A stretch of 64,000 bases of DNA from an uncultured bacterium (GCA_903842085.1 CAIMLA010000043.1:1563-65562), one strand, 5' to 3'. Positions 9,241-64,000 are shown, counted from the stretch's first letter. Numbers and translations: made by a program. Notes: generated by a model from the letters alone, not told the origin.

Positions 9241-12054
9241 ATGCATAACAATATTGTTATTACTGGCGCACGTGAGCATAATTTAAAAAATATAAATGTG
9301 GCTATTCCACGTGATAAGCTGGTCGTAATTACTGGCTTGTCAGGATCTGGCAAATCATCTTTAGCCTTTGATACAATCTATGCCGAAGGTCAAAGACGGT
9401 ATGTCGAGAGTCTCTCAAGTTATGCGCGTCAATTTTTAGGCTTAATGGAAAAGCCTGATGTTGATCAAATCGAAGGTCTTTCGCCAGCAATTTCGATTGA
9501 TCAGAAATCAACGACTAAAAATCCTCGTTCAACTGTTGGCACTGTCACTGAAATATATGATTATTTGAGGTTGCTCTATGCCCGAATTGGTATCCCACAT
9601 TGCCCAATTTGTGGTCGCGAAATTACCAAACAAACAGTTTCACAAATAGTTGAGCAAATATTATCAAAAGACTCGGGAACCAAATTTATGATACTGGCTC
9701 CAATCATTAAGGATAAAAAGGGTGTACATAAATATGTATTTGAAGGTCTAAAAAAGGCTGGCTATGCTCGCGTCAGAGTGGATAATAAAATATTCGATAT
9801 TGATGAAGAGATAACCTTAGATAAAAATAAAAAGCACACCATAGATGCGGTCATTGATCGCTTAATTGTGGGTAGTGAAATTGGCAAACGATTAATTGAA
9901 TCAGTCGAGGCGGCCCTCAATCTGGGTGAAGGAGTGATGATTTATTTTGACAATGATAGTCAAGAAGAGGAAGTCTATTCCCAAAACTTTGCTTGTCCTA
10001 ACTGCCATATTAGCTTGCCCGAGATTTCTCCAAGGAGTTTTTCATTTAATAGTCCTCATGGTGCCTGTCCAGTCTGCACTGGCCTTGGTTCTAGGCTTGA
10101 GATAGACCCAGAACTGGTCGTCCCTAATAAAAAACTGACTATTGCCGAAGGAGCGATTCGGTATTGGAATCGAACAACGGACAAATTAAATTGGTATACC
10201 CGCCTTTTGAAAACAGTCGGCGAGAAATACGACTTTACGGTTGATCAGCCGATCAGTACCATTACGGAAAAATCATTGAATATTATTATGTATGGTAGTG
10301 GAGATGAGCTTTTTAACTTTCAGCTTGGTTCAAGATCTTATGAAGCGACCTATGAAGGCGTTGTGGCCAATCTAGAAAGAAGATATCTAGAAACAGATTC
10401 AGATTATATCCGGAACGAAATTAGAAAATACATGGGCGAGAAAATCTGCCCAAAATGCCAAGGAAAAAGGTTGAAGCCCGAATTTTTGGCCGTTACAATT
10501 GTCGGCCGGTCGATTGTTGATTTGACAAATTATCCAATCAATGAGGCTTTTGATTATTTCAATAAGTTAGAGTTGAGTAGTCGAGACAATAACATCGCAA
10601 AGCAGATTTTGAAGGAGATTAAAGCTCGTCTACGTTTCTTAATAAATGTTGGCCTAGATTATCTAACGCTAGATCGGAGTGCCAGTACCCTCTCTGGTGG
10701 TGAAGCTCAGAGAATCAGACTAGCCACCCAGATTGGATCTTCATTGATGGGGGTAATTTATATCTTAGATGAGCCTTCAATCGGTTTGCATCAGCGCGAT
10801 AATTATCGCCTGATTGATACTCTGAAGAATTTAAGAGATTTGGGAAATACAGTCATAGTTGTTGAACATGATAAAGACACGATGGAAGAAGCCGATTGGT
10901 TGATCGATGTTGGCCCAGGCGCGGGCGAAAAAGGCGGAGAGGTCATTGCGGCTGGGACACCAGATGAAGTAAAAAGGAATCCAAATTCACTTACGGGTCA
11001 ATACCTAAAGGGAGAGAAAAAGATCTTCTGTCCCACGAGTCGGAGAAAGGGAAACGGGAACGAAATAGTTGTGATTGAAGCAGAAGAGAATAATCTTAAA
11101 AAAATAAATGTCCCAATCCCTCTCGGAAAACTGGTCTTAGTGACCGGGGTCTCTGGCTCAGGTAAGTCCAGCCTAGTAAACGATGTTTTGGCTAAAAAGC
11201 TGGCTCAGATCTTTCATCGAGCCCAAGAGCCAGCAGGGAAACATAAAGAGATTATTGGCTTAAAAAATCTAGATAAAGTTATTAATATCGATCAGTCACC
11301 AATTGGCCGAACCCCACGATCTAATCCGGCCACTTATACTAAGGCCTTTGATGACATTAGAGAATTATTTTCGAATGTTCCTGAAGCCAAGATTAGAGGA
11401 TACAAAAAGGGCAGGTTTAGCTTCAATGCAAAGGGGGGCGGGCGTTGTGAAGTCTGCCGAGGTGAGGGGATATTAAAAATTGAAATGCATTTCTTGCCTG
11501 ATGTCTATATCACCTGCGAAGAATGTGGCGGGAAGAGATATAACAAAGAAGCCTTAGAGATACACTATAAGGCGAAAAATATCTCTGATGTTTTGAATAT
11601 GACGGTTGGGGAAGGGTATGAATTTTTTCACAATATTCCTCAAATAAAACGAAAACTAGAAACCCTGGTCGAGGTTGGCTTGGGCTATATTCGGCTCGGT
11701 CAACCAGCCACCACTTTATCTGGTGGCGAAGCTCAAAGAGTTAAACTAGCCTCTGAATTAGCCAGACGTTCTACAGGGAAGACCCTTTATATTTTAGATG
11801 AGCCAACGACGGGACTCCACTTTGATGACGTCAATCGCTTAATGCATGTCTTGAATAAGCTTGTTGATATCGGCAATACCGTTTTAGTGATCGAGCACAA
11901 TCTAGAAGTTATTAAATGTGCCGATTGGATTATCGATCTAGGGCCAGAAGGTGGAAACAAGGGGGGTGAGATTCTGGCGCAGGGAACACCAGAACAATTA
12001 GTTAAAGAAAAAAAATCATATACTGGGCAATATCTGTCTAAAGTTTTAGCCTAA
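9241..12054 (+). CDS. uvrA: Excinuclease ABC subunit A
   Basis: Two ABC ATPase modules ([10 protein letters not shown] and [10 protein letters not shown] Walker A; LSGGEAQR signatures) with zinc-finger Cys clusters. 937 aa. Confidence 0.93.
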
Positions 12055-12058
12055 GACT

Positions 12059-13486
12059 ATGGATCCATTGAACAAAAATATTGTTCAAAAGATAAAGAAT
12101 CTCCCTCAGACACCTGGAGTCTACATCTTTCGTAATGAGAAAAGAAAGGTTATTTATGTTGGCAAGGCGATCAAGCTGAAGACTAGGGTTGGGAGCTATT
12201 TCCAAAATAAAAACCATGACATCAAAACTCAAAAATTGATAGAAAAAATTGCTGATTTAGAATATCTCAATTGTGCTTCCGAGATCGAGGCGCTAGTCGT
12301 AGAATCAGAGCTGATCAAACGCTATAAGCCTAGATATAATATCATCTGGAAAGATGATAAAAATTATTCATATATTAAAATTACGGGTGAGGCTTATCCG
12401 AGGGTTTTTGTGGTTAGAGATACCTCTGATGCCGAGAGTCAATATATCGGACCTTTTGTCGATGCGGTTGCTCTAAAAAATTCTCTCAAGCATATCCGTA
12501 AAATATTTCCTTTTTGTACTTGTTATAAGCCGAAGGACCAGGTTTGCCTATATTATCATCTAAAACTTTGTCTTGGACACGGGGAGGAAGCGAAGAAAAA
12601 AGAATATGGGAAGAACATAAAAGCGCTCTCTCGATTTTTTTCTGGGGACACCGCTAAAATTATTGCTGATTTAAAAAAAGAGATGAAGCTATCGGCCCAA
12701 AACCAAGACTTTGAGGCTGCTGCTAGAGCGAGGGATCGATTATTAAATTTAGAAAACCTCAAATATGTTCCGATAGAGAGCCAGAATCACGATCAAATGC
12801 ACGATCAAGCCTTAATTGACCTACAAATTATGACCGGCTTGGATAAAATGCCGAAGCGGATCGAATGTTTCGATATTTCGCATATCTCGGGGCATTTACC
12901 GGTTGGCTCAATGGTCGTTTTTACCAATGGTTTGCCAGATAAAAATAGCTATCGGAGATTTAAGATAAAAGGGGTTAAGCAGATTGATGATTTTGCGATG
13001 TTGAATGAAGCGGTTGGAAGAAGATTGAAAAATCTTGATCGTAAAAAGGACAAGTCGTTTGAGCTAAATCCAGATTTAATTATCATAGATGGCGGGAAAG
13101 GTCAACTTTCAACGATTATGAAATCATACCAGAGCCAATACCCATCAATTTGTTTTCTCTCAATCGCGAAAAAAAATGAGGAGCTCTATCTCTCTAGAAA
13201 TAACCGGATCGAGAAACTCCCCTTGATTGAAAATTCTCAAACAATGTTTCTCTTGCAGAGAATTAGAGATGAAGCCCATAGATTTGCCATTACCTACCAT
13301 CGCCACCTCCGGAAAAATGAAATAACAACCTCGGCCCTTGATTTAATTCCAGGAGTCGGTCCAAAAACAAAACGAGCGCTTCTCAAAAAGTTTGGTACAA
13401 TTGAGGGAATCAAAAGCGCTGACCTTTCGGAAATAGCGATATTGGTCGGCCTAAAAAAGGGGGAAAGGATCAAGGAAAATTTATGA
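12059..13486 (+). CDS. uvrC: Excinuclease ABC subunit C (compact, 475 aa)
   Basis: N-terminal GIY-YIG (PGVYIFRN...VIYVGKA), UVR domain (FEAAARARDRL), endonuclease core, C-terminal HhH (LIPGVGPKTKRALLKKFG). Shorter than the typical roughly 600 aa. Confidence 0.85.
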   Translation: MDPLNKNIVQKIKNLPQTPGVYIFRNEKRKVIYVGKAIKLKTRVGSYFQNKNHDIKTQKLIEKIADLEYLNCASEIEALVVESELIKRYKPRYNIIWKDDKNYSYIKITGEAYPRVFVVRDTSDAESQYIGPFVDAVALKNSLKHIRKIFPFCTCYKPKDQVCLYYHLKLCLGHGEEAKKKEYGKNIKALSRFFSGDTAKIIADLKKEMKLSAQNQDFEAAARARDRLLNLENLKYVPIESQNHDQMHDQALIDLQIMTGLDKMPKRIECFDISHISGHLPVGSMVVFTNGLPDKNSYRRFKIKGVKQIDDFAMLNEAVGRRLKNLDRKKDKSFELNPDLIIIDGGKGQLSTIMKSYQSQYPSICFLSIAKKNEELYLSRNNRIEKLPLIENSQTMFLLQRIRDEAHRFAITYHRHLRKNEITTSALDLIPGVGPKTKRALLKKFGTIEGIKSADLSEIAILVGLKKGERIKENL

Positions 13487-16465: not shown

Positions 16466-16493
16466 AAAAAACTCCATAACTATGGAGTTTTTT
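16466..16493. terminator. Bidirectional intrinsic terminator (A5-ACTCCATA-AC-TATGGAGT-T6)
   Basis: Perfect hairpin flanked by an A-run and a T-run, placed between the convergent SBP gene (+) and the tRNA operon (-). Confidence 0.65.
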
Positions 16494-16579
16494 GGTGCCC
16501 GAGGCGGGACTCGAACCCGCAAGATGTCACCACCAACGGATTTTAAGTCCGTCGCGTATACCAATTCCGCCACCCGGGC
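16494..16579 (-). tRNA. tRNA-Leu (anticodon TAA), long variable arm, CCA encoded
   Basis: Reverse complement GCCCGGGTGGCGGAATTGGTATACGCGACGGACTTAAAATCCGT...GGGTTCGAGTCCCGCCTCGGGCACCA. Anticodon loop CTTAAAA. Confidence 0.85.
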
Positions 16580-16624
16580 ATTAGATTTAAGCAAAACCAA
16601 ACGAATCAGGAAGCCCCATCAATC

Positions 16625-16699
16625 TGGAGGCCTCGCCCGGAATTGAACCGGGGTGAACGGTTTTGCAGACCGCTGCGTAAACCACTCCGCCACGAGGCC
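16625..16699 (-). tRNA. tRNA-Cys (anticodon GCA), CCA encoded
   Basis: Reverse complement GGCCTCGTGGCGGAGTGG...GCGGTCTGCAAAACCGT...CCCGGTTCAATTCCGGGCGAGGCCTCCA. Anticodon loop CTGCAAA. Confidence 0.85.
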
Positions 16700-16706
16700 A
16701 TTTATA

Positions 16707-16782
16707 TGGAGCGAGAGACGGGGCTCGAACCCGCGACCTCAACCTTGGCAAGGTTGCGCTCTACCAGCTAAGCTACTCTCGC
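16707..16782 (-). tRNA. tRNA-Gly (anticodon GCC), CCA encoded
   Basis: Reverse complement GCGAGAGTAGCTTAGCTGGTAGAGCGCAACCTTGCCAAGGTTGAGGTCGCGGGTTCGAGCCCCGTCTCTCGCTCCA. Confidence 0.88.
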
Positions 16783-16819
16783 AAACACACGTGGACTAGA
16801 TTACGTCGAGATTGATTTA

Positions 16820-16895
<76 letters not shown>

Positions 16896-16963
16896 TTATT
16901 TTCTTTTTCTTCTTACTAAGATTCTTCTGGCGATAAATAACGTCCAGATCAATCTTGGTAAAA

Positions 16964-17040
16964 TGGTGGGCGATGGGGGATTCGAACCCGCGACCTCCTC
17001 GGTGTAAACGAGATGCTCTAACCAGCTGAGCTAATCGCCC
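16964..17040 (-). tRNA. tRNA-Val (anticodon TAC), CCA encoded (exact 5' end +/-1 nt)
   Basis: Reverse complement GGGCGATTAGCTCAGCTGGTTAGAGCATCTCGTTTACACCGAGGAGGTCGCGGGTTCGAATCCCCCATCGCCCACCA. Anticodon loop TTTACAC. One apparent C/C mismatch in the T-stem. Confidence 0.75.
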
Positions 17041-17077
17041 CGATATCAATGTTCAATTGACTCGTATCCCTTAACTT

Positions 17078-17164
17078 TGGTGCGGACGAGAGGACTTGAA
17101 CCTCCAAGACCTTTCGGTCACTAGCACCTCATGCTAGCGCGTATACCAATTCCGCCACGTCCGC
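17078..17164 (-). tRNA. tRNA-Leu (anticodon GAG), long variable arm, CCA encoded
   Basis: Reverse complement GCGGACGTGGCGGAATTGGTATACGCGCTAGCATGAGGTGCTAGTGACCGAAAGGTCTTGGAGGTTCAAGTCCTCTCGTCCGCACCA. Confidence 0.8.
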
Positions 17165-37087: not shown

Positions 37088-38023
37088 ATGAATACTTTGT
37101 TTGTCTTTATCGCGATAACTCTCGTAGTTATGGCCATTATCTTTGAACTTATTGAGCGGGTAGCTAAGCTTTCTATGCGCAGTTTTTTTATTGTATTATC
37201 AGCGGCGTTTGTTGGGCTTGTGATGGGAGCCTTATTGACCCTTCCTCTTAGCAAAACACCTGGCTATTTAGGTGAATGGTTACCTCTCGTTTTTACAGTC
37301 TTATTAGTTTTTGGTTTTGTCACTTTTTTTTGGCGGCAGAAGGAGGCAGTCAACAAATGGTTTGATGCCATCAATAAATCTCTGTCAGTCCTAAAAAACG
37401 TTGGCGCTCAAACACACCCGCAAAACAGTGTGGCGGTTGTTGATACTTCAGTTTTAATTGATGGTCGCATCTCTGACATCATTCGGACTGGGTTTTGGTT
37501 CTACAAAATAATAATACCTAGATTTATTTTGGCAGAGTTACAAACAATTGCTGATTCAACTGATTCAGATCGAAGAGCTAAAGGTCGAAGAGGGCTTGAT
37601 ATTATTGGGACCTTACGCAAAAGCAAGGAAGTAAAAGTAGAAATTAGCAATCTCGATTTTCCAGAAATTGGCGAGGTTGATGCAAAACTAGTGGCGATAG
37701 CAAAAAAACAGAATTTATTATTGTTAACGACTGATTTTAACCTAAATAAAGTTGCCAAGGCCGAGGGACTGAAGGTTTTAAATATTAATGAGCTTGCTCA
37801 AGGATTACGGCCAGTAATCTTGCCGGGCGAAGAATTAGAATTAAAGCTCGTTCATTTGGGTAAAGAAAAAAGCCAAGGAGTCGGGTACCTTCCTGACGGC
37901 ACTATGATTGTTGTTGAAAGGGGAGGAAGTCTCATTGATAAAACAGTTAAGGTTAAAATTACCAGAACTCTCCAAACGGCAGCTGGTAAAATGTTTTTTT
38001 CAAAGATAGTCGATGCTAAATAA
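37088..38023 (+). CDS. PIN/TRAM domain-containing membrane protein (YacL-like)
   Basis: N-terminal TM helices, PIN domain (VVDTSVLIDGRISDI...), C-terminal TRAM-like beta domain (GTMIVVERGGSLIDKTVKVKITR). Confidence 0.7.
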   Translation: MNTLFVFIAITLVVMAIIFELIERVAKLSMRSFFIVLSAAFVGLVMGALLTLPLSKTPGYLGEWLPLVFTVLLVFGFVTFFWRQKEAVNKWFDAINKSLSVLKNVGAQTHPQNSVAVVDTSVLIDGRISDIIRTGFWFYKIIIPRFILAELQTIADSTDSDRRAKGRRGLDIIGTLRKSKEVKVEISNLDFPEIGEVDAKLVAIAKKQNLLLLTTDFNLNKVAKAEGLKVLNINELAQGLRPVILPGEELELKLVHLGKEKSQGVGYLPDGTMIVVERGGSLIDKTVKVKITRTLQTAAGKMFFSKIVDAK

Positions 38024-38912
38024 TTTACAAAAAAGCGTAACTCTCGCACCCTATACGACTTATAGAATTGGAGGTAACGCTGATTATTTTTTTGTCGCAA
38101 AAACAAAAGAAGCCTTAATCGAGGCTTTGGCGTGGGCGAGCAAGGAGGGGATAGCTTATGTCATAATCGGCGGGGGAAGCAATCTTTTAATCTCAGACGC
38201 AGGTTTCCGTGGCTTAGTTATATTAAATCGATCAAATAAATACTCAATATCTGATGGTCTGGTGATATCAGAGAGTGGGATGATTTTATCAACCCTGGCT
38301 CGAAAAACAGTTGATTTAAGTTTAAGTAATTTGGATTTTGCGATGAATATTCCGGGTACCGTTGGCGGAGCGGTTGTTGGTAATGCGGGAGCTTACGGTA
38401 AAGAAATCTCTAATTCCTTAGATTCAGCCCTGGTTTGGTCTGCCAAAGAAGGACTAAAAAAACATCTGAAGGAGGATTTAGGGTTTGCTTATCGATCGTC
38501 GACCTTAAAAAACAACCATGAATCGGTTTTAATCGAAGCCGAATTTCAAATGCAAAAAGAAGATAAGGAGCTGATGCTTGAAAAAGCTAAAAGCGATTTA
38601 GAAAAAAGAAAACATGACTATCAAGGTTTATCCTGTGGTAGCTATTTCAAAAACCCAATCAATAAAAAAATAAATTTAAACAAAGAAACGATTGATAACC
38701 CCTCAGCTGGATTATTAATTGATAGTTTAGGCTTAAAAGGGCTCTCTGTTGGTGGAGCGAGTGTTAGTAAATATCATGCTAATGTTATCGTCAATAAAAA
38801 CAAAGCAACTGCAAAAGATATTATAAATCTTGAGAAATTAATTATTAAAAAAGTGAAAGAGAGATATGATATCGAGCTACAATCAGAGGTGACAAAAATA
38901 GGTATAGTTTAG
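38013..38912 (+). CDS. murB: UDP-N-acetylenolpyruvoylglucosamine reductase
   Basis: FAD-binding N-terminus ITLAPYTTYRIGGNADYFF, GGGSNLL, and a C-terminal MurB domain. 299 aa. Confidence 0.88.
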   Translation: MLNNLQKSVTLAPYTTYRIGGNADYFFVAKTKEALIEALAWASKEGIAYVIIGGGSNLLISDAGFRGLVILNRSNKYSISDGLVISESGMILSTLARKTVDLSLSNLDFAMNIPGTVGGAVVGNAGAYGKEISNSLDSALVWSAKEGLKKHLKEDLGFAYRSSTLKNNHESVLIEAEFQMQKEDKELMLEKAKSDLEKRKHDYQGLSCGSYFKNPINKKINLNKETIDNPSAGLLIDSLGLKGLSVGGASVSKYHANVIVNKNKATAKDIINLEKLIIKKVKERYDIELQSEVTKIGIV

Positions 38913-38994: not shown

Positions 38995-39009
38995 TGACAA
39001 AGCAAGGTT
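38995..39009. repeat. Left copy of perfect 15-bp inverted repeat TGACAAAGCAAGGTT bounding the GC-rich island
   Basis: Its exact reverse complement occurs at 39718-39732. Confidence 0.8.
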
Positions 39010-39078
39010 GGTAAAGTATGTTGGGAGGGCGGAGCGCACAGAATGTGTGCACTCCGCCCAATGTGCGCGTTTTAAAGG

Positions 39079-39624
39079 CTAGGCCTTGGCGCGAGCCCGC
39101 TTCTTGGCGTTTTTGGTTTTGCCCCCGGCGGGGGCCGGCTTGGCCCCGCTGGACCCCTTCTCAGGGCCGGCCGTCGATGTGGCGAGCTTCCTCGCCCTCT
39201 GGGCGGCTTTTCGAGCCTCCAGAGTTTGGGGGTCGGCTTTGGCCCGCTGTGGCCGATTCAGGTTCCGGAGAACCCGAACGGCTTCAGCAAGAAAGAGGGG
39301 ATTGAGGTACCTCTCGGCACTCTCGACCCCGTGTTCCCGACAGAGGTAAAATGCTACCTCTGCGAGGAACCGTCTTGTCTGATTGAATTCTCCGTCCAAA
39401 ATCGCGGTTTTCACCGCGGAAAAATGGACGTGGTAAGCTTTCAAAGCCATGACTCGTCTCGACACCGAGTCGATCTTGACTCGGCCCTGGTTGGATATGA
39501 AGACCAACCAGCTTTCGAGGCAGCCCATCAGGGCCTCCTCAGAGTCGATGTTGAGTGCCGTTTCGAACTCCTGGTAACGCTGGGCATTCGGCCCAACGGT
39601 TATGGTGATGACGACGTCCGACAT
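39079..39624 (-). CDS. Hypothetical protein with basic Lys/Ala/Arg-rich (histone-H1-like) C-terminal tail, encoded in the GC-rich island; likely horizontally acquired
   Basis: 181-aa ORF with an AAAGGAG RBS 5 nt upstream of the ATG. Codons are GC3-rich, unlike the rest of the window. C-terminal AKKRARAKA / KPAPAGGKTKNAKK tail. A GC-rich hairpin (39024-39058) follows the stop. Confidence 0.6.
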   Translation of the reverse strand: MSDVVITITVGPNAQRYQEFETALNIDSEEALMGCLESWLVFISNQGRVKIDSVSRRVMALKAYHVHFSAVKTAILDGEFNQTRRFLAEVAFYLCREHGVESAERYLNPLFLAEAVRVLRNLNRPQRAKADPQTLEARKAAQRARKLATSTAGPEKGSSGAKPAPAGGKTKNAKKRARAKA

Positions 39625-39717
39625 CTCGACTCCTTTTGCGTGGTTTTAAGAACAAAAATATACTTTAAGGCTTTTAGAACACTACTATTTTGCAATAGAG
39701 TGACTTTAGCCTAGGAT

Positions 39718-39732
39718 AACCTTGCTTTGTCA
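39718..39732. repeat. Right copy (reverse complement) of 15-bp inverted repeat AACCTTGCTTTGTCA
   Basis: Perfect reverse complement of 38995-39009. Confidence 0.8.
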
Positions 39733-40173: not shown

Positions 40174-42780
40174 TTATTTTACTGTCACAGTAACATTGCT
40201 GCTAGCAGTTTGTCCAATCTTATCGGTGACTGTTGCGATAATATCAGCTGAAGCCCCTGATGGTTTATCAAAAGTTGCGACATAATTAGTCCCGTCTAGA
40301 GTTGCTTCTTTGGATTGACTGCCAATTTTGATCGTCACAGATTGAACCCCATTTGGAGCAGTTATCGTCACACTAACACTATACGGTGTCGCGAAATCGT
40401 CACTCGCTTTTAGGGTCGTAAAAGATATTGTCGGGGCGCCTTGGTTAATTGGACAGGTATCCTGGCCAATTTGTTCTGATCCAGAAGTTGAATAACCGCT
40501 ACTTGCTGTCCAAGCTCCGATCGGAGCAAACCATCTGCCATAAGAGGCATCGGTCGAAGGAATCTCGGCCGTGACGACGTTGATCGTTCTCGTCTCAATT
40601 TGAGCTGGGTCTGGAGGACAACTGTTGTTAACAAGTTTACCTGAAAGTTTATTAATTTTAAGTTCTGTAGCGGCCACAGCGTCTTGAATATTATACCAAG
40701 ATGGGAAAATATCTGTTACCGTTTTGCTCCCAGCGACTGGTTTTTTACCGGTGACGGCGTCTAGAGTCACCGTTTTTATCCCACTGGGTCTGGTAAATTG
40801 TTCATTGGGAGTCCCGTTGAGGGCGTTAATCATATAATCGTGCCAAATTGGGGCAGCCGCAATCGAACCACCGGCTTTTGTCATGGGGGTTCCATCATTA
40901 TTACCAGCCCAAACGCCTGTTACTAAGCTTGGGGTGTAACCAAGCGTCCAAGCGTCTTTGTAATCATTGGTAGTTCCGGTTTTGGCGGCGACTGGGCGAC
41001 CATGGAGCGTTAGGGGGCCACCGGTACCAAAGACATCTGCTCGGGCGTAATCATCAGATAAAACATTGCTTATCAGATATGTAATTTGTGAATCTAAGAC
41101 TTTTTTACCAGCATTTTCTTTGTATTCATCAATTGTTTTTCCTTTCGCGTCTTCAACTTTAATATACCAACTTGGGTCTTGTTTGACGCCACTATTAGCA
41201 AAAACCCCATAAGCATTGACCATATCTAAAAGCTTAACCTCTCCAGCGCCCAAGACAAGGGATAGGCCGTAAAGGCTTTTATCGTTTAAAGTTGTAATCC
41301 CCATTGCGTGGACGGTATCGATAACGTTATCAAGGCCAGCGATATAAAGTGTTTTTACCGCTGGGATATTGAGTGAGTTTTGCAAGGCGCTTCTCATCGT
41401 GACCGGTCCGCGAAATCGGCCATCATAATTACTGGGCACATAACCGCCGCCAAAATCAGTCTTTAGATCAAAGAGCACACTTCCAGGACCCCAATTATTT
41501 AACTTCCAAGCAGTTGCATAGGCAAAAGGTTTGAAAGAGGAACCAGGCTGACGATCCATAACCGCAACATTGACATTGCCATCTATATCAGGATTAAAGA
41601 AATCACGACTGCCAACCATGGCCAAGATTTGACCAGTTTTCGGATCCATCGAAACTAAGGATGCATTTGAGGCATTGTAAGCAGTCCGATTTTTGTCAAC
41701 GTTGGTTGCAACTGCCTCCTCGGCATATTGCTGTTTCGTGATATCTAAAGTGGTATAAACCTTTAAACCGCCTTCATTGACCAGTTTTTCACCGTATTTT
41801 TCGACTAGTTTTTCTTTGACATACATTACAAAGTGAGGTGCCGTGATGGAGCCATAAGGATTTTGCGAGAAGGCAACTTCTTTTTTCATGGCAGCTTCAG
41901 CATCCTTGGTCGTAATAAATTTTTGAGCGGCCATATCTTTTAAGACTTGATCTTTTCTTTTTAAGAGCAAAGCTTTATTTGTCCCGTAAGGAGAATAATA
42001 AGTTGGAGCTTGAGGCAGGGCGGCCAAGGTCGAACATTCTTCTAAACTTAAATCTTTTAAATCTTTATTAAAATAAGTTTTTGCGGCAACTTTAATCCCA
42101 TAAGCATTAGAGCCATATGGAATTTCATTGAGATACATTTTTAAAATATCGTCTTTCTTGTACATCTGTTCTATTTCGATTGAAAGGATGATCTCTTTAA
42201 TCTTGCGAGAATAAGACCTCTCGGTTGTTAGGAGGGCGTTCCGTACAAATTGTTGGGTGATTGTTGAGCCACCGCCTTTGGTGCGATCACCAGTAATAAT
42301 ACCGGAAAAAGCTCTGGCAATACCGCGGACACTAAAACCACTGTGCTTATAAAAATCTTTGTCCTCAATCGCGATCGTGGCATTTTTACAATTTTGAGGA
42401 ATCTCATCCCAGCCAGCCATGAGCCGATTTTTGTCGCCGTGGATCTCATAGAGAAGTTTTCCGTTTCGATCAAAAATCTGAGTCGATTGAGCCGAAATAC
42501 GAGCATTTATTTTGTTTGGAGTTGGTAAATCCTTGGCATACCAGGCAAAAACACCAAAGAGGAGGCCCAGAAAAACTACGGTAACGAGGCCGATTTTCTT
42601 CCAACCACTTTTTGTCGTAAAAAGTGACTTTAATGATTCTTTAAAGCCTGAGAAATTTAAATTCTTAAAGGAGAATCCCTTTTTTTGTCGAGACCGAACG
42701 GCTGTCTTGGCAGAACGAGGACGCGAAAAAGTTCGATAACTTTGTCTTGAGCGTCGCTTTCTCGGTTTATATAAAGGCAT
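40174..42780 (-). CDS. Class A penicillin-binding protein (PBP1A-type bifunctional transglycosylase/transpeptidase) with C-terminal beta-rich extension
   Basis: Basic cytoplasmic N-terminus, TM, GT51 motifs (ATIAIEDKDFYKHSGFS...RNALL), transpeptidase SSFKP, SLN and KTGTT motifs, plus about 170 aa of extra Thr/Ser/Val-rich C-terminus. GGAGAAAAA RBS. Confidence 0.9.
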   Translation of the reverse strand: MPLYKPRKRRSRQSYRTFSRPRSAKTAVRSRQKKGFSFKNLNFSGFKESLKSLFTTKSGWKKIGLVTVVFLGLLFGVFAWYAKDLPTPNKINARISAQSTQIFDRNGKLLYEIHGDKNRLMAGWDEIPQNCKNATIAIEDKDFYKHSGFSVRGIARAFSGIITGDRTKGGGSTITQQFVRNALLTTERSYSRKIKEIILSIEIEQMYKKDDILKMYLNEIPYGSNAYGIKVAAKTYFNKDLKDLSLEECSTLAALPQAPTYYSPYGTNKALLLKRKDQVLKDMAAQKFITTKDAEAAMKKEVAFSQNPYGSITAPHFVMYVKEKLVEKYGEKLVNEGGLKVYTTLDITKQQYAEEAVATNVDKNRTAYNASNASLVSMDPKTGQILAMVGSRDFFNPDIDGNVNVAVMDRQPGSSFKPFAYATAWKLNNWGPGSVLFDLKTDFGGGYVPSNYDGRFRGPVTMRSALQNSLNIPAVKTLYIAGLDNVIDTVHAMGITTLNDKSLYGLSLVLGAGEVKLLDMVNAYGVFANSGVKQDPSWYIKVEDAKGKTIDEYKENAGKKVLDSQITYLISNVLSDDYARADVFGTGGPLTLHGRPVAAKTGTTNDYKDAWTLGYTPSLVTGVWAGNNDGTPMTKAGGSIAAAPIWHDYMINALNGTPNEQFTRPSGIKTVTLDAVTGKKPVAGSKTVTDIFPSWYNIQDAVAATELKINKLSGKLVNNSCPPDPAQIETRTINVVTAEIPSTDASYGRWFAPIGAWTASSGYSTSGSEQIGQDTCPINQGAPTISFTTLKASDDFATPYSVSVTITAPNGVQSVTIKIGSQSKEATLDGTNYVATFDKPSGASADIIATVTDKIGQTASSNVTVTVK

Positions 42781-61008: not shown

Positions 61009-62184
61009 ATGGCAGAAACATTTCAAAGAACTAAGCCACATGTCAATGTAGGAACCATTGGCCACGTTGATCATGGGAAGACAACCTTGACTGCCGCTAT
61101 TCTAAAAGTCCTTGGGGACAAAGGAATGGCTAAAGTTGAGAAATTTGAAGAAATTGATAGTGCACCCGAGGAAAGAGAACGTGGTATTACGATTGCGACT
61201 CATCACTCAGAATATGAGACAGAGAAACGCCATTATGCTCACGTTGACTGTCCAGGACATGCTGATTATGTTAAAAACATGATTACTGGAGCAGCTCAAA
61301 TGGACGGCGCAATCTTGGTTGTTGCAGCTACTGATGGTCCTATGCCTCAAACCAGAGAGCACTTACTCTTAGCTAAACAAGTTGGTGTACCAAAGATTGT
61401 CGTTTATATGAACAAAGTTGATCAGGTCTCTGATCCAGAAATGCTTGATCTAGTAGAAATGGAGATCAGGGAACTTTTGACAAAATATGAATATGACGGC
61501 GATAATGCGCCTATTATCAAAGGGTCTGCACTAAAAGCTTATGAAGGCGATGCAGAAGCCCAAAAATCAATTATGGAACTTTTAGATGCTCTTGATACTT
61601 ATATTCCAGAACCGGTTCGTGATATTTCTAAACCTTTCATGATGGCAGTAGAAGATGTTTTCTCGATCAAGGGACGAGGGACGGTTGCGACTGGTCGTAT
61701 CGAAAAAGGTGTAGTGAAAATTAACGAAGAAATTGAAATCGTTGGGATCAAACCAACCCGAAAAACTGTTGTTACCGGGATTGAAATGTTTAAAAAACAA
61801 CTTGATCAAGGTCAAGCGGGTGATAATGCCGGAGTTTTACTGCGAGGCATAGAAAAAGCAGATATCGAGCGTGGAATGGTTCTTGCAAAACCCGGCTCAA
61901 TTACACCCCATACAGAATTTGATGCAGAAGTATATATTCTAACCAAAGAAGAGGGTGGAAGACATACTCCATTCTTCAAAGGTTATAAACCTCAATTCTA
62001 CATTAGAACAACTGACGTTACCGGTGAGATCACTTTCGACGGCGAAATGATTATGCCTGGTGATCGAGTTAAGATGGGCGTCAAATTGATTCAACCAATT
62101 GCGATCGAAGAAGGATTAAACTTCGCGATTCGTGAAGGTGGTAGAACTGTAGGCTCAGGTATCGTAACAAAGATTAACAAATAA
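61009..62184 (+). CDS. tuf: Elongation factor Tu
   Basis: [41 protein letters not shown] 61009 follows an AAGGAG RBS; the track's 60988 is an upstream TTG. Confidence 0.95.
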
Positions 62185-62192
62185 TAATCATA

Positions 62193-62513
62193 ATGGCCGA
62201 AGAAAAAACAAAACAACGAATTAGGATAAAGCTTAAAGCCTATGACCACAAGATCATAGATCAATCTTCGGTTCAGATTATCGAAGCGGCTGAACGTAGT
62301 GGAGCCATCGTTATGGGTCCAATCCCTCTACCAACAGATCGTAGTCCGATTACGGTGTTACGAGCAAGTAATATCGATAAAGATTCTAGGGAGCAGTTTG
62401 AGATGAAAGTTCACAAAAGACTGATCGATATTACAGACTATACTAACAAAACCGTCGATGCTTTAATGAACATCAATCTTCCTGCCGGAGTCGATATCGA
62501 AATCAAAATGTAA
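62193..62513 (+). CDS. rpsJ: 30S ribosomal protein S10
   Basis: [41 protein letters not shown]. 106 aa. Confidence 0.93.
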
Positions 62514-62549
62514 AGAGCTTAAAACCTTTTATATTGTACGAACACTTGT

Positions 62550-63134
62550 TTGAATGATAAAACCGCTATTGGGGTCGTGACCGAAAAGATCTCAAACACA
62601 ACTGATCAATACCGAGTCCAATACGAAGGTAAAGCGATCGTCAAAGTCTCTATCGAAAATGGTGCTATCACCGCCGGCGATCTTCTTACGACTTCTGCCA
62701 CTAACCCAGGCACTGTCGTTAAAGCAACTGAGACCTCAACGGTCACTCTTGGCTTAGCCCTAGAATCAATCGCTGTGGATGGGGAAATGGCGATTATGTT
62801 ACGAACTTCGTATGTTACAGCAGCGGGTAACTCTGTTTTGTCTGAAACCCCTGGAGACGTCAAGGTAGCTGGTACTGGCAAACTATATTTTGGTGATGCC
62901 GAGACATATTATTTTTCTTTGAATGGCACTACGCTAGAATTAAATACGGCATTTAAAGCAAGTGGAGATTTTGAAACTTCTGGTTCTTTTTCACTCGGTG
63001 GTGGAATAACTTGGTCAAAGGGGGCTGGCGCGCCGACTGGAACTTGTACAACCGGGAGTATGTACAGTCGGGTTGACGGCTCTGCTGGATCAACACTCTA
63101 TGTTTGCGAAAAGGGCGCTTGGATTGCAAAGTAA
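62550..63134 (+). CDS. Hypothetical Gly/Thr/Ser-rich beta-type protein (fibre/adhesin-like C-terminus with Cys pair); possible gene remnant
   Basis: 194-aa ORF with a TTG start, no RBS, in the same frame as rpsJ. C-terminal GTCTTGSMYSRVDGSAGSTLYVCEKGAWI with two Cys 20 aa apart. Occupies the position where rplC is normally found. Confidence 0.4.
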   Translation: MNDKTAIGVVTEKISNTTDQYRVQYEGKAIVKVSIENGAITAGDLLTTSATNPGTVVKATETSTVTLGLALESIAVDGEMAIMLRTSYVTAAGNSVLSETPGDVKVAGTGKLYFGDAETYYFSLNGTTLELNTAFKASGDFETSGSFSLGGGITWSKGAGAPTGTCTTGSMYSRVDGSAGSTLYVCEKGAWIAK

Positions 63135-63485
63135 TTTTCTTAGACACTCTATCGATAGATCTTTTTAATAAGGACGAGGATGACAAAAAGCAGAAATCAA
63201 TTACTATGCTTTTCGACTTTTTTATCTCTGGGAAAAAAACCTAAAAACGGCTCATTTTATCTTTCTAGTCTGACGAGACCTGCAGACGACTGATTGATCG
63301 AGGCAATCGAGGACAGTTCTCCAACTTCTCGGCTCATTGCAGTCGTTCTAAGGATTAAGAGGTGCTATATAGTTTGAGACTATCGAGAGCCAATGAAGGG
63401 CTTATTCTTTTTACCGATACGACTTATTAAGTAATATGGTTAATATAATAATGTATAAAATTGACAGATATGATAAGATTTTTTT

Positions 63486-64000
63486 ATGGATAATATATCA
63501 GGAAGTGTAAATTCATCAGAATCAATGCCTGGGCTTGAACCGACCCTGCCTGGACAAGATGAAAAAGACTTGCGAATAGGAGAAGGCATAGAAGATTCAG
63601 AAAAAACGCTTATGGATTATGGGCAAAACAATAACCCTGAAGATCCCTCTTATTTAACGAGGCTAGGCATTGAACTAGTAAATGGCGATGATCCAGAAAA
63701 TGCAGATTATAGATTAAGTAAACCTACTTCCAAATGCGAAATGTCTTTGGTCATAGCCGCAAAGGATGAGGAAGAGAGAATTGGTCCAATGCTTGAATCT
63801 CTCTCTATCCAAGAAGGTTTAGCTGATAACCTCGATAGTTTTGAAGTGATTATTATTGTAAATAATTGTACTGATTCGACTATAGAGGCAGCTCAGTTAA
63901 AAATAGAAGAAATAAATAAAAAGCTTGGAGATGAGGGCCGAACGGATAGACTGCAGGTACACTTGATTGATGTTAAGTTTAAAGACGGTGAAGGAGGCGT
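63486..64000 (+). CDS. Family 2 glycosyltransferase (3' end truncated by window edge) with about 85-aa N-terminal extension
   Basis: MSLVIAAKDEEERIGPMLESL...FEVIIIVNNCTDST matches the GT2 N-terminal Rossmann motif (cf. VSVIIPAYNEE...EIIVVDDGSTD). Runs to the window end without a stop. Confidence 0.55.
   Translation, partial: MDNISGSVNSSESMPGLEPTLPGQDEKDLRIGEGIEDSEKTLMDYGQNNNPEDPSYLTRLGIELVNGDDPENADYRLSKPTSKCEMSLVIAAKDEEERIGPMLESLSIQEGLADNLDSFEVIIIVNNCTDSTIEAAQLKIEEINKKLGDEGRTDRLQVHLIDVKFKDGEGG

Follow-up and report, generated by a model that had tools for sequence, protein, structure and literature searches.

The 194-codon open reading frame that separates rpsJ from a probable glycosyltransferase (GT) gene near the end of the analysed DNA, a stretch of 64,000 nucleotides from an uncultured bacterium (hereafter the window), is on balance probably a recent, truncated and mosaic remnant of fibre-type genes, lodged at a permissive boundary between two transcription units. 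Most likely the locus is an ordinary genome scar, left by an insertion that is specific to the lineage and lies between two operons. The fragment itself is probably transcribed without being a proper gene; it would be non-functional, or at best an accidental remnant, and would not be productively translated. The first-pass annotation of this DNA had proposed a rearrangement breakpoint, an insertion of surface or glycosylation genes, or a relic of a larger surface protein, and the last of these accounts best for the open reading frame.

Toward the end of the window rpoB, rpoC, rpsL, rpsG, fusA, tuf and rpsJ all lie on the + strand. The tuf gene encoding EF-Tu (61009..62184, + strand), the final long gene of the rpsL-rpsG-fusA-tuf unit in the list of open reading frames, has a GGAG Shine–Dalgarno motif 5' of its ATG at 61009. 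Eight nucleotides past its stop codon begins rpsJ (62193..62513, + strand; 106 aa), which exceeds both curated cut-offs for ribosomal protein S10 over its full length (Pfam PF00338, Ribosomal_S10: E=5.4e-34, 116.8 bits against a cut-off of 21.2; NCBIfam NF001861, S10: E=1.6e-43, 147.1 bits against a cut-off of 85). With this gap and these profiles the tuf–rpsJ junction is canonical, as had been stated, and the reported loss of the rpsJ-rplC-rplD linkage holds within the window: rplC is not found directly 3' of rpsJ, where a canonical S10 operon would have it, and tblastn with the L3 and L4 proteins of the closest relative detected neither rplC nor rplD in the 64 kb, only 1487 nt of which follow the rpsJ stop. 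In the source genome rplC, with a promoter of its own, would follow at a greater distance downstream or be placed elsewhere. A candidate L3 protein of the same deposit, P0154, is encoded on a 40.8-kb contig. The genes of the region read normally in code 11 and the GC content is 0.40. Scanning of the whole window with Rfam returned tRNAs only, and a scan of its GC-rich islet gave no match.

The nearest species representatives are the MAGs 'bacterium ELA257' (L008), with S10, EF-Tu and RpoC proteins 97, 98 and 92% identical to those of the window, and 'uncultured Candidatus Saccharibacteria' (L009), with 95% identity in S10. Judging from these proteins, the host lineage appears to be Saccharibacteria-like (Patescibacteria). 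In L008, L098, L106 and L108, rplC lies directly 3' of rpsJ, with gaps of 207–341 nt. Our scan placed a terminator-like hairpin after rpsJ on the plus strand in L001 and L098, and in L008 a symmetric hairpin in the same place was called on the minus strand. In both loci scanned, L008 and L098, a consensus scan detected a TTGACT-17-TATAAT promoter 5' of rplC. A block of ~143 nt 5' of rplC is conserved at 86–98% in L008, L097, L098, L100 and L101, and in L100 and L101 the DNA upstream of the rplC promoter is not rpsJ. The conserved promoter and leader sequence reads TTGACTTTT...GAAATTGAATATAAT ... CAAGCGGGGATTAGAC. This strongly conserved element has no Rfam family: neither the rpsJ–rplC spacer of L008 nor the 1.5-kb gap of L009 gave an Rfam match.

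According to the consensus scans, rpsJ and rplC do not belong to one transcription unit in these relatives. As a terminator hairpin follows rpsJ and rplC is provided with a promoter and leader of its own, the rpsJ–rplC gap in the closest relatives is predicted to separate two transcription units. An rps10 gene retained in the str operon is also a feature of cyanobacteria and plastids. The earlier description of an interrupted S10 operon is consequently right about the broken linkage but overstates the interruption, and the missing rpsJ–rplC link should be taken neither as a misassembly nor as a remarkable operon disruption.

Among 80 species representatives, the gap between rpsJ and rplC measures 150–300 nt in most Patescibacteria. 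Several Saccharibacteria-like relatives depart from this, with large gaps of 703–3569 nt that hold unrelated genes: 703, 853 and 857 nt separate the two genes in L067, L073 and L079, respectively, 1501 nt in L009, 1645 nt in L074 (two small membrane proteins and a minus-strand frame that is HAD-phosphatase-like by eye), 2542 nt in L012 (three paralogous small anchored proteins) and 3569 nt in L010 (five open reading frames, including NUDIX-like and aminotransferase-like ones by eye). In L014, rplC is not found within 3 kb of rpsJ. Foreign DNA would be tolerated after rpsJ because the site lies between transcription units. The ribosomal supercluster of this Saccharibacteria-like clade thus appears to be cut into units after rpsJ, with the gap serving as a recurrent landing site for cargo. 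A gene order shared with relatives, which the first-pass annotation had allowed for, is seen only in part: L001 has the rpsJ–GT order without the fragment, and other relatives carry other cargo at the same gap.

In Gammaproteobacteria and Bacilli, small insertions of genes have been described between the concatenated ribosomal operons str and S10 (Brandis 2021, PMC8046335). There, as here, the cargo is lineage-specific, amounts to one to few genes and is found at a unit boundary of the rpoBC-str-S10-spc cluster; in both systems it differs from relative to relative, and some lineages are without the linkage altogether. In the present clade, however, the boundary lies one gene later, since rpsJ goes with tuf and the break falls between rpsJ and rplC, and part of the cargo is a gene fragment rather than a working gene.

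The limits of the insertion were defined by comparison with L001, which encodes the same S10 protein and shows 86–90% nucleotide identity over the aligned flanks. By blastn, positions 1–358 of L001 correspond to 62165–62523 of the window and positions 518–1007 to 63382–63871, and no counterpart of 62524–63381 is present. In L001, rpsJ and its terminator hairpin are followed by 159 nt and then by the GT gene of the window, whose upstream region is likewise shared, and the fragment is absent. Homology detected by blastn ends at 62523, and a patchy match by eye extends to ~62537. The remnant of the native rpsJ 3' flank (62514..62537, + strand) is missing the terminator hairpin of the relatives, and it is followed by an inserted segment of ~840 nt (62538..63381, + strand) that takes the place of the ~160 nt spacer of L001. 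No homologue of the fragment was found in the loci of 80 relatives. An insertion therefore fits the locus, as L001 has the same flanks without the fragment. Either the rpsJ–GT adjacency is older than the fragment or the fragment was later deleted in L001; we infer an insertion in the lineage of the window, and a deletion in L001 could instead be the event. Between 62513 and 63386 no terminator-like site was detected, and the loss of the rpsJ terminator would likely result in read-through transcription of the fragment.

The frame itself (62550..63134, + strand) opens with TTG at 62550, in the same frame as rpsJ, as had been noted, at a distance of 36 nt from the rpsJ stop rather than the 37 nt first given. 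Stop-codon read-through from rpsJ into the frame was rejected, given two in-frame TAA stops (62511-13 and 62520-22) and normal use of code 11. The first description of a 194-aa frame rich in G, T and S, with a TTG start and no ribosome-binding site, proved accurate: its product contains T28 G25 A20 S18, and no Shine–Dalgarno motif precedes the TTG, a GGAG-type motif being present at most genes of the window. The sole candidate signal near the start is a weak GGGG 5' of a GTG at 62577, and no in-frame ATG occurs before codon 81. The GC3 of the fragment, 0.37, falls inside the host range. No Pfam, NCBIfam or PHROGs model matched the frame, Pfam did not detect a Peptidase_S74 domain in it, and tblastn against 50,697 cultured-phage records gave no match.

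A HMMER search with the frame retrieved 406 representatives at E<=1e-3, of which the best 150 were parsed, and its homology to tail-fibre-like proteins bears out the fibre-type relationship suspected earlier. Similarity to the full-length relatives P0002 and P0004, in DNA and in protein, begins at 62553, the second codon of the frame, and the 30 nt upstream of this position are unrelated to the P0002 and P0004 genes. The full-length relatives are tail-fibre-like proteins of 300–1800 aa (P0002, 300 aa; P0004, 522 aa; P0017, 1822 aa) with hundreds of residues, Peptidase_S74 included, upstream of the homologous segment. The abrupt onset of homology, together with the absence of a Shine–Dalgarno motif and of any ATG for 80 codons, argues that the apparent start is a recombination junction and not a site of initiation. 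The TTG-start gene of the first-pass annotation is therefore probably not one, its 5' end being the point where homology to full-length genes begins.

The fragment consists of two modules of different origin. Module A, a beta-tulip-like domain (residues 2–103; 62553..62864, + strand), was delimited by its homology to internal domains of longer proteins and matches internal segments of P0002 (147–249/300), P0004 (319–417/522) and P0017 (1413–1507/1822). Peptidase_S74 lies upstream of it in P0002, P0004 and P0007, its three closest relatives, and is detected by Pfam in P0004 and P0007. Its similarity to the post-S74 domain is strong (E=6e-33 for P0002 and E=1.8e-30 for P0004; 69–72% identity). 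Peptidase_S74 tail-fibre-like proteins of Patescibacteria such as P0004 are among its closest known counterparts. Compared with them, the fragment is without the GNVGIGT-type repeats, S74 and all other upstream parts, and it has a different C-terminal module. P0004 is encoded by a chromosomal gene of the related MAG GCA_964593075.1, which keeps tuf-rpsJ-rplC. Among the best 150 of the 406 representatives, module A is often present twice per protein and is always internal, module B nearly always forms the C-terminal end, and none of the 149 representatives other than the fragment's own cluster combines the two.

A model of module A built from 28 homologous segments reached pLDDT values of 89–96 at residues 31–80, with low confidence in the N-terminal ~20 residues. 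The core of this predicted monomer is structurally similar to the beta-tulip fold of decoration proteins, and the sequence profile of the module touches 6qyy (E=0.0095). Module A may thus be compared with beta-tulip capsid decoration or cement proteins and with the base of the phi29 head-fibre protein gp8.5 (PDB 6qyy, 8qsy, 8phs). In contrast to these capsid proteins, its context is a cellular fibre-like protein, and the likeness is that of a predicted model.

The rest of the frame (62868..63134, + strand) is made up of a linker and module B, a C-x19-C domain that ends ...W-x-A-K-stop and has its core at ~62997-63131. Module B covers approximately residues 135–194, or 89–194 for its closest match P0003, with the last 105 residues of which it shares 71% amino acid identity; the nucleotide sequence of the region is ~70% identical to L089. 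In 104 of its 131 matches among the best 150 of 406 representatives, it ends no more than three residues (<=3) from the C-terminus. The motif W-x-G-x-G-A-P-x-G-x-C-x2-G-S-x-Y-x-R-x-D-G-x4-L-Y-V-C-E-x3-W-x-A-K is almost unchanged in proteins that otherwise differ widely; the spacing between the cysteines is 19 residues, and not the 20 of the Cys-x20-Cys motif originally reported.

Foldseek against BFVD matched module B to the C-terminal regions of pectate-lyase tailspikes and tail fibres from phages (E 2e-5 to 1e-2; 36–46% identity over ~55 residues). A protein-pattern scan of IMG/VR with the last 59 residues gave no match; a degenerate DNA pattern for T-L-Y-V-C-E-x3-W-x2-K gave four matches there, all four of them true module-B ends, in frames of 375–658 aa. 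The module-B protein of L104 (638 aa from ATG) has PHROG tailspike matches. In tailspikes and tail fibres of uncultured Caudovirales (pectate-lyase superfamily), as in the fragment, module B occupies the extreme C-terminus. Its core, like that of module A, has a confidently predicted fold. The domain is represented neither by a Pfam, NCBIfam or PHROG model nor by a solved structure, and the C-x19-C module can be regarded as an unannotated domain that is widespread in both phage tailspikes and fibre proteins of bacteria. Since the motif is highly conserved across very different fibres and tailspikes, module B may be a folding or trimerisation cap rather than a variable receptor-binding tip. The resemblance to receptor-binding tips drawn at first is accordingly disfavoured.

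The junction between rpsJ and the frame is identical in six independent short ENA contigs (L002–L007) from different samples and with two naming schemes, and its recurrence argues that it is not misassembled. The right-hand junction (63133–63381) is seen in the window only. A misjoin at 62.5–63.5 kb, the flaw that the first-pass annotation had considered, is consequently contradicted on the left, while on the right the join is known from the window alone. All fragment-bearing contigs are identical to the window up to 62725. This identity, together with the absence of the fragment from the loci of 80 relatives, suggests that the fragment is recent. No substitution within the frame was detected in L003, all differences of which lie in the 3' end of tuf.

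Downstream of 62725, co-existing strains differ. The zone of the allele switch (62726..62790, + strand) was defined by comparing the window with L005: the two are identical over 62166–62725, then show 11 differences, 10 of them synonymous, in the 61 nt to 62786, and are unrelated beyond. From ~62726 on, L004 behaves like L005, with these 11 differences followed by a sequence that resembles P0004. Of the two alleles, that of L005 is colinear with a P0004-type gene, and in that of the window a P0003-type C-terminus has taken the place of the 3' part. A ratio of 10 synonymous to 1 non-synonymous difference is typical of exchange with a functional paralogue.

The most likely scenario for the origin of the locus would begin with a lineage in which the GT gene already stood downstream of rpsJ. 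The site would have been tolerant, with the rpsL-rpsG-fusA-tuf-rpsJ unit ending in a terminator and the rplC-rplD... unit starting from its own promoter and leader. A piece of ~840 nt, carrying the 3' end of a chromosomal gene for a tail-fibre-like surface protein and beginning inside the post-Peptidase_S74 region, would then have lodged just downstream of rpsJ, between the two units, and removed the rpsJ terminator. Later, homologous recombination with another fibre-type gene would have swapped the 3' half of the fragment. Such an exchange would have generated both the present chimera of a beta-tulip-like module and a C-x19-C cap and the at least two alleles of the population.

Some observations do not favour a remnant. 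The frame is intact up to the native ...AK stop of the family, both alleles are open as far as sequenced, and both module cores have confidently predicted folds. Without the rpsJ terminator, transcription of the fragment is probably strong, and some translation from TTG or GTG may occur. These same features would be expected of a real small gene that gives a protein of ~185-194 aa, from TTG or from the GTG at 62577, on the abundant read-through transcript of rpsJ; its product might work on its own, probably as a trimer, in the manner of a fibre-tip or lectin-like module. Gene callers predict the frame in several assemblies (P0001, P0271), nothing resembling a terminator separates it from rpsJ, and many matches of module B are short proteins, though many of these come from cut contigs. 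We nevertheless consider such a gene unlikely. The start of the frame coincides with the homology breakpoint and has no ribosome-binding site, and the product would have neither a signal peptide or anchor nor any of the upstream parts of its relatives. The combination of the two modules is unique among the best 150 of 406 representatives, and the frame is missing from L001 as well as from the loci of 80 relatives. The intactness of the frame says little, because the fragment is very young. The "hypothetical protein" of 185-194 aa annotated in several assemblies is thus most likely a gene remnant.

A less probable reading, to which we give little credence, treats the fragment as a cassette that has no promoter and acts as donor or acceptor in a recombination system for varying the C-terminal ends of host-attachment fibres, by analogy with silent pilS, vls and tprK. 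Like those cassettes, it is a copy that has lost its 5' end and has no start signal, with mosaic differences between alleles: one population contains two alleles with an identical 5' part, a wholly different 3' part and a sharp switch at ~62726, the differences at the edge of the switch are mostly synonymous, and the family is modular, a single protein often containing module A twice. Unlike in the pilS, vls and tprK systems, neither an expression locus (in the window and the protein collections) nor a cassette array nor evidence of ongoing exchange was found. In 5.8 billion clustered proteins there is no full-length near-identical partner, the best protein match reaching 72% identity in module A (by BLASTP, 51% across 90% of the frame). 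The fragment is single, with neither an array nor a second copy in 64 kb, the list of open reading frames contains no recombinase-like frame in 62.5–64 kb, and the variation is seen in the fragment itself and not in any expression site. The most specific version of this idea is slightly more doubtful still: a start-less cassette behind one of the most highly transcribed genes of an episymbiotic Saccharibacteria-like cell would swap 3' modules with full-length host-attachment fibre genes. If a cassette did operate here, it would provide strain-level variation of fibre tips, and the two alleles would be snapshots of exchange.

Two other switching systems were rejected. For invertase-driven tail-fibre switching (Gin/Cin, shufflons), only one 10-bp inverted repeat (62879 / 63367) was found; by our own estimate it is due to chance, and inversion of the segment would, by eye, give a stop after three codons. 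For a diversity-generating retroelement target there is no template repeat, as blastn of 62520–63400 against the window finds only itself.

An assembly artefact, namely a chimeric join through a repeat, is very improbable: although the region assembles poorly in other samples, with many contigs of <1 kb ending inside the frame, the right-hand junction is without independent support and the foreign tuf 3' end of L003 indicates that graph chimeras occur nearby, the left junction recurs in contigs whose two naming schemes suggest different pipelines, no repeat is shared at the junction and the rpsJ–GT adjacency is independently seen in L001.

Downstream of the remnant, the spacer 63135–63485 measures 351 nt, in agreement with the ~350 bp of non-coding DNA first reported. 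It comprises the non-coding 3' part of the insert (63135..63381), which matches neither Rfam nor L001, and the native upstream region of the GT gene (63382..63485, + strand), with 86% nucleotide identity to positions 518–621 of L001. An Rfam scan of the spacer and the frame gave no real match. The 12-bp palindrome singled out earlier, TCTATCGATAGA, is present at 63148–63159 but was rejected as a notable element, as the window contains 17 perfect 12-bp palindromes against 17.9 expected from its composition.

The last frame (63486..64000, + strand) is the 5' part of a probable GT2 glycosyltransferase gene that runs off the window. Its match to PF00535 (E=0.0057, 17.1 bits against a cut-off of 23.3; residues 87–137) is weak, with the domain cut by the window end and only the first ~50 profile positions inside the window, and PF13641 likewise stays below its gathering score (E ~0.006-0.008 for the two profiles). 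No relatives of this frame were found in a word-indexed protein search, and JGI metagenomes contained only distant GT2 genes. The GT2 assignment made at first is thus probable, and the 85-aa N-terminal extension, described as unusual, is also conserved in L001, where the product of the gene downstream of rpsJ shows 82% amino acid identity over 128 aa.

In Saccharibacteria-like genomes, unrelated cargo genes have repeatedly landed in the gap between rpsJ and rplC. The gap spans 0.7 to 3.6 kb in these genomes, and part of the cargo lies on the opposite strand. Such regions extend over positions 8470-9970 of L009, a Saccharibacteria MAG, 10322-13890 of L010, 10316-12857 of L012 and 1292-2906 of L074; in L014, the 3 kb downstream of rpsJ (10316-13335) contain no rplC.

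Directly upstream of rplC, relatives carry a consensus promoter (TTGACT-17-TATAAT) followed by a leader of approximately 100 nt. This block is located at 10457-10592 in the nearest relative, bacterium ELA257 (L008), and at 60-202, 9818-9960, 120-262 and 151-291 in L097, L098, L100 and L101, respectively. Its conservation between relatives reaches 86-98%, as compared with 77-91% mutual identity of their L3 proteins, and the core of the block, ..ACGGGG..GACAAGTC..GAAACT.TC.., is partly retained in the more distant L010. An Rfam search with the promoter/leader block returned no match. Double changes were found in 4 of the 19 predicted pairs, the sequences being too alike for covariation. The leader is a candidate for autoregulation by a ribosomal protein.

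Module B, the C-terminal domain of the 194-codon frame downstream of rpsJ (window 62997-63131), is also present in proteins P0003-P0150. It spans about 45 residues, with invariant P, C, C and W and the ending W-x-A-K, and is widespread, being carried by bacterial fibre-like and viral tailspike-like proteins. Pfam, NCBIfam and PHROG contain no model of this domain and it has no solved structure; we consider it a candidate new domain family. Its closest relative, P0003 (L089 1239-5279), is unusually built: it begins with a pair of MerR/HTH_17 DNA-binding domains and also carries a predicted membrane helix, after which come some 1100 residues of GNVGIGT-type fibre repeats.

Nextera adaptor sequence is present at the 3' end of L088 and at positions 1-17 of L090. 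The adaptor, CTGTCTCTTATACACATCT, is translated as ...SYTHLTLPTILRV in P0002, a longer relative of the frame; the termini of P0002 are therefore artefactual, as possibly are those of P0004. The short contig L003, which shares the junction of rpsJ with the frame, differs from the window at 35 positions, all within 125 nt at the end of its tuf part (L003 1-125, window 62001-62124), and the 657 nt downstream are identical. This cluster stems from a recombination event inside tuf or, alternatively, from a graph chimera via this conserved gene.

Several genes of the window (4891, 19966, 32014 and 63486) have a TATAAT-like hexamer 6-8 nt ahead of the ATG and lack a Shine-Dalgarno motif, an arrangement that suggests leaderless mRNAs, possibly including that of the probable glycosyltransferase gene (63486). 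Six tRNA genes (Leu-taa, Cys, Gly, Phe, Val and Leu-gag) are clustered at 16493-17164 on the minus strand, whereas almost every protein gene in the window is encoded on the other strand.

A GC-rich islet (39000-39720; GC 0.51 versus 0.40 window-wide), without a match in Rfam, contains a 181-aa ORF with a lysine/alanine-rich tail (39079-39624, minus strand). By eye, the gene on one side of it (38013-38912) resembles murB and the gene on the other (40174-42780, minus strand) one for a class A penicillin-binding protein. The islet may represent foreign DNA.
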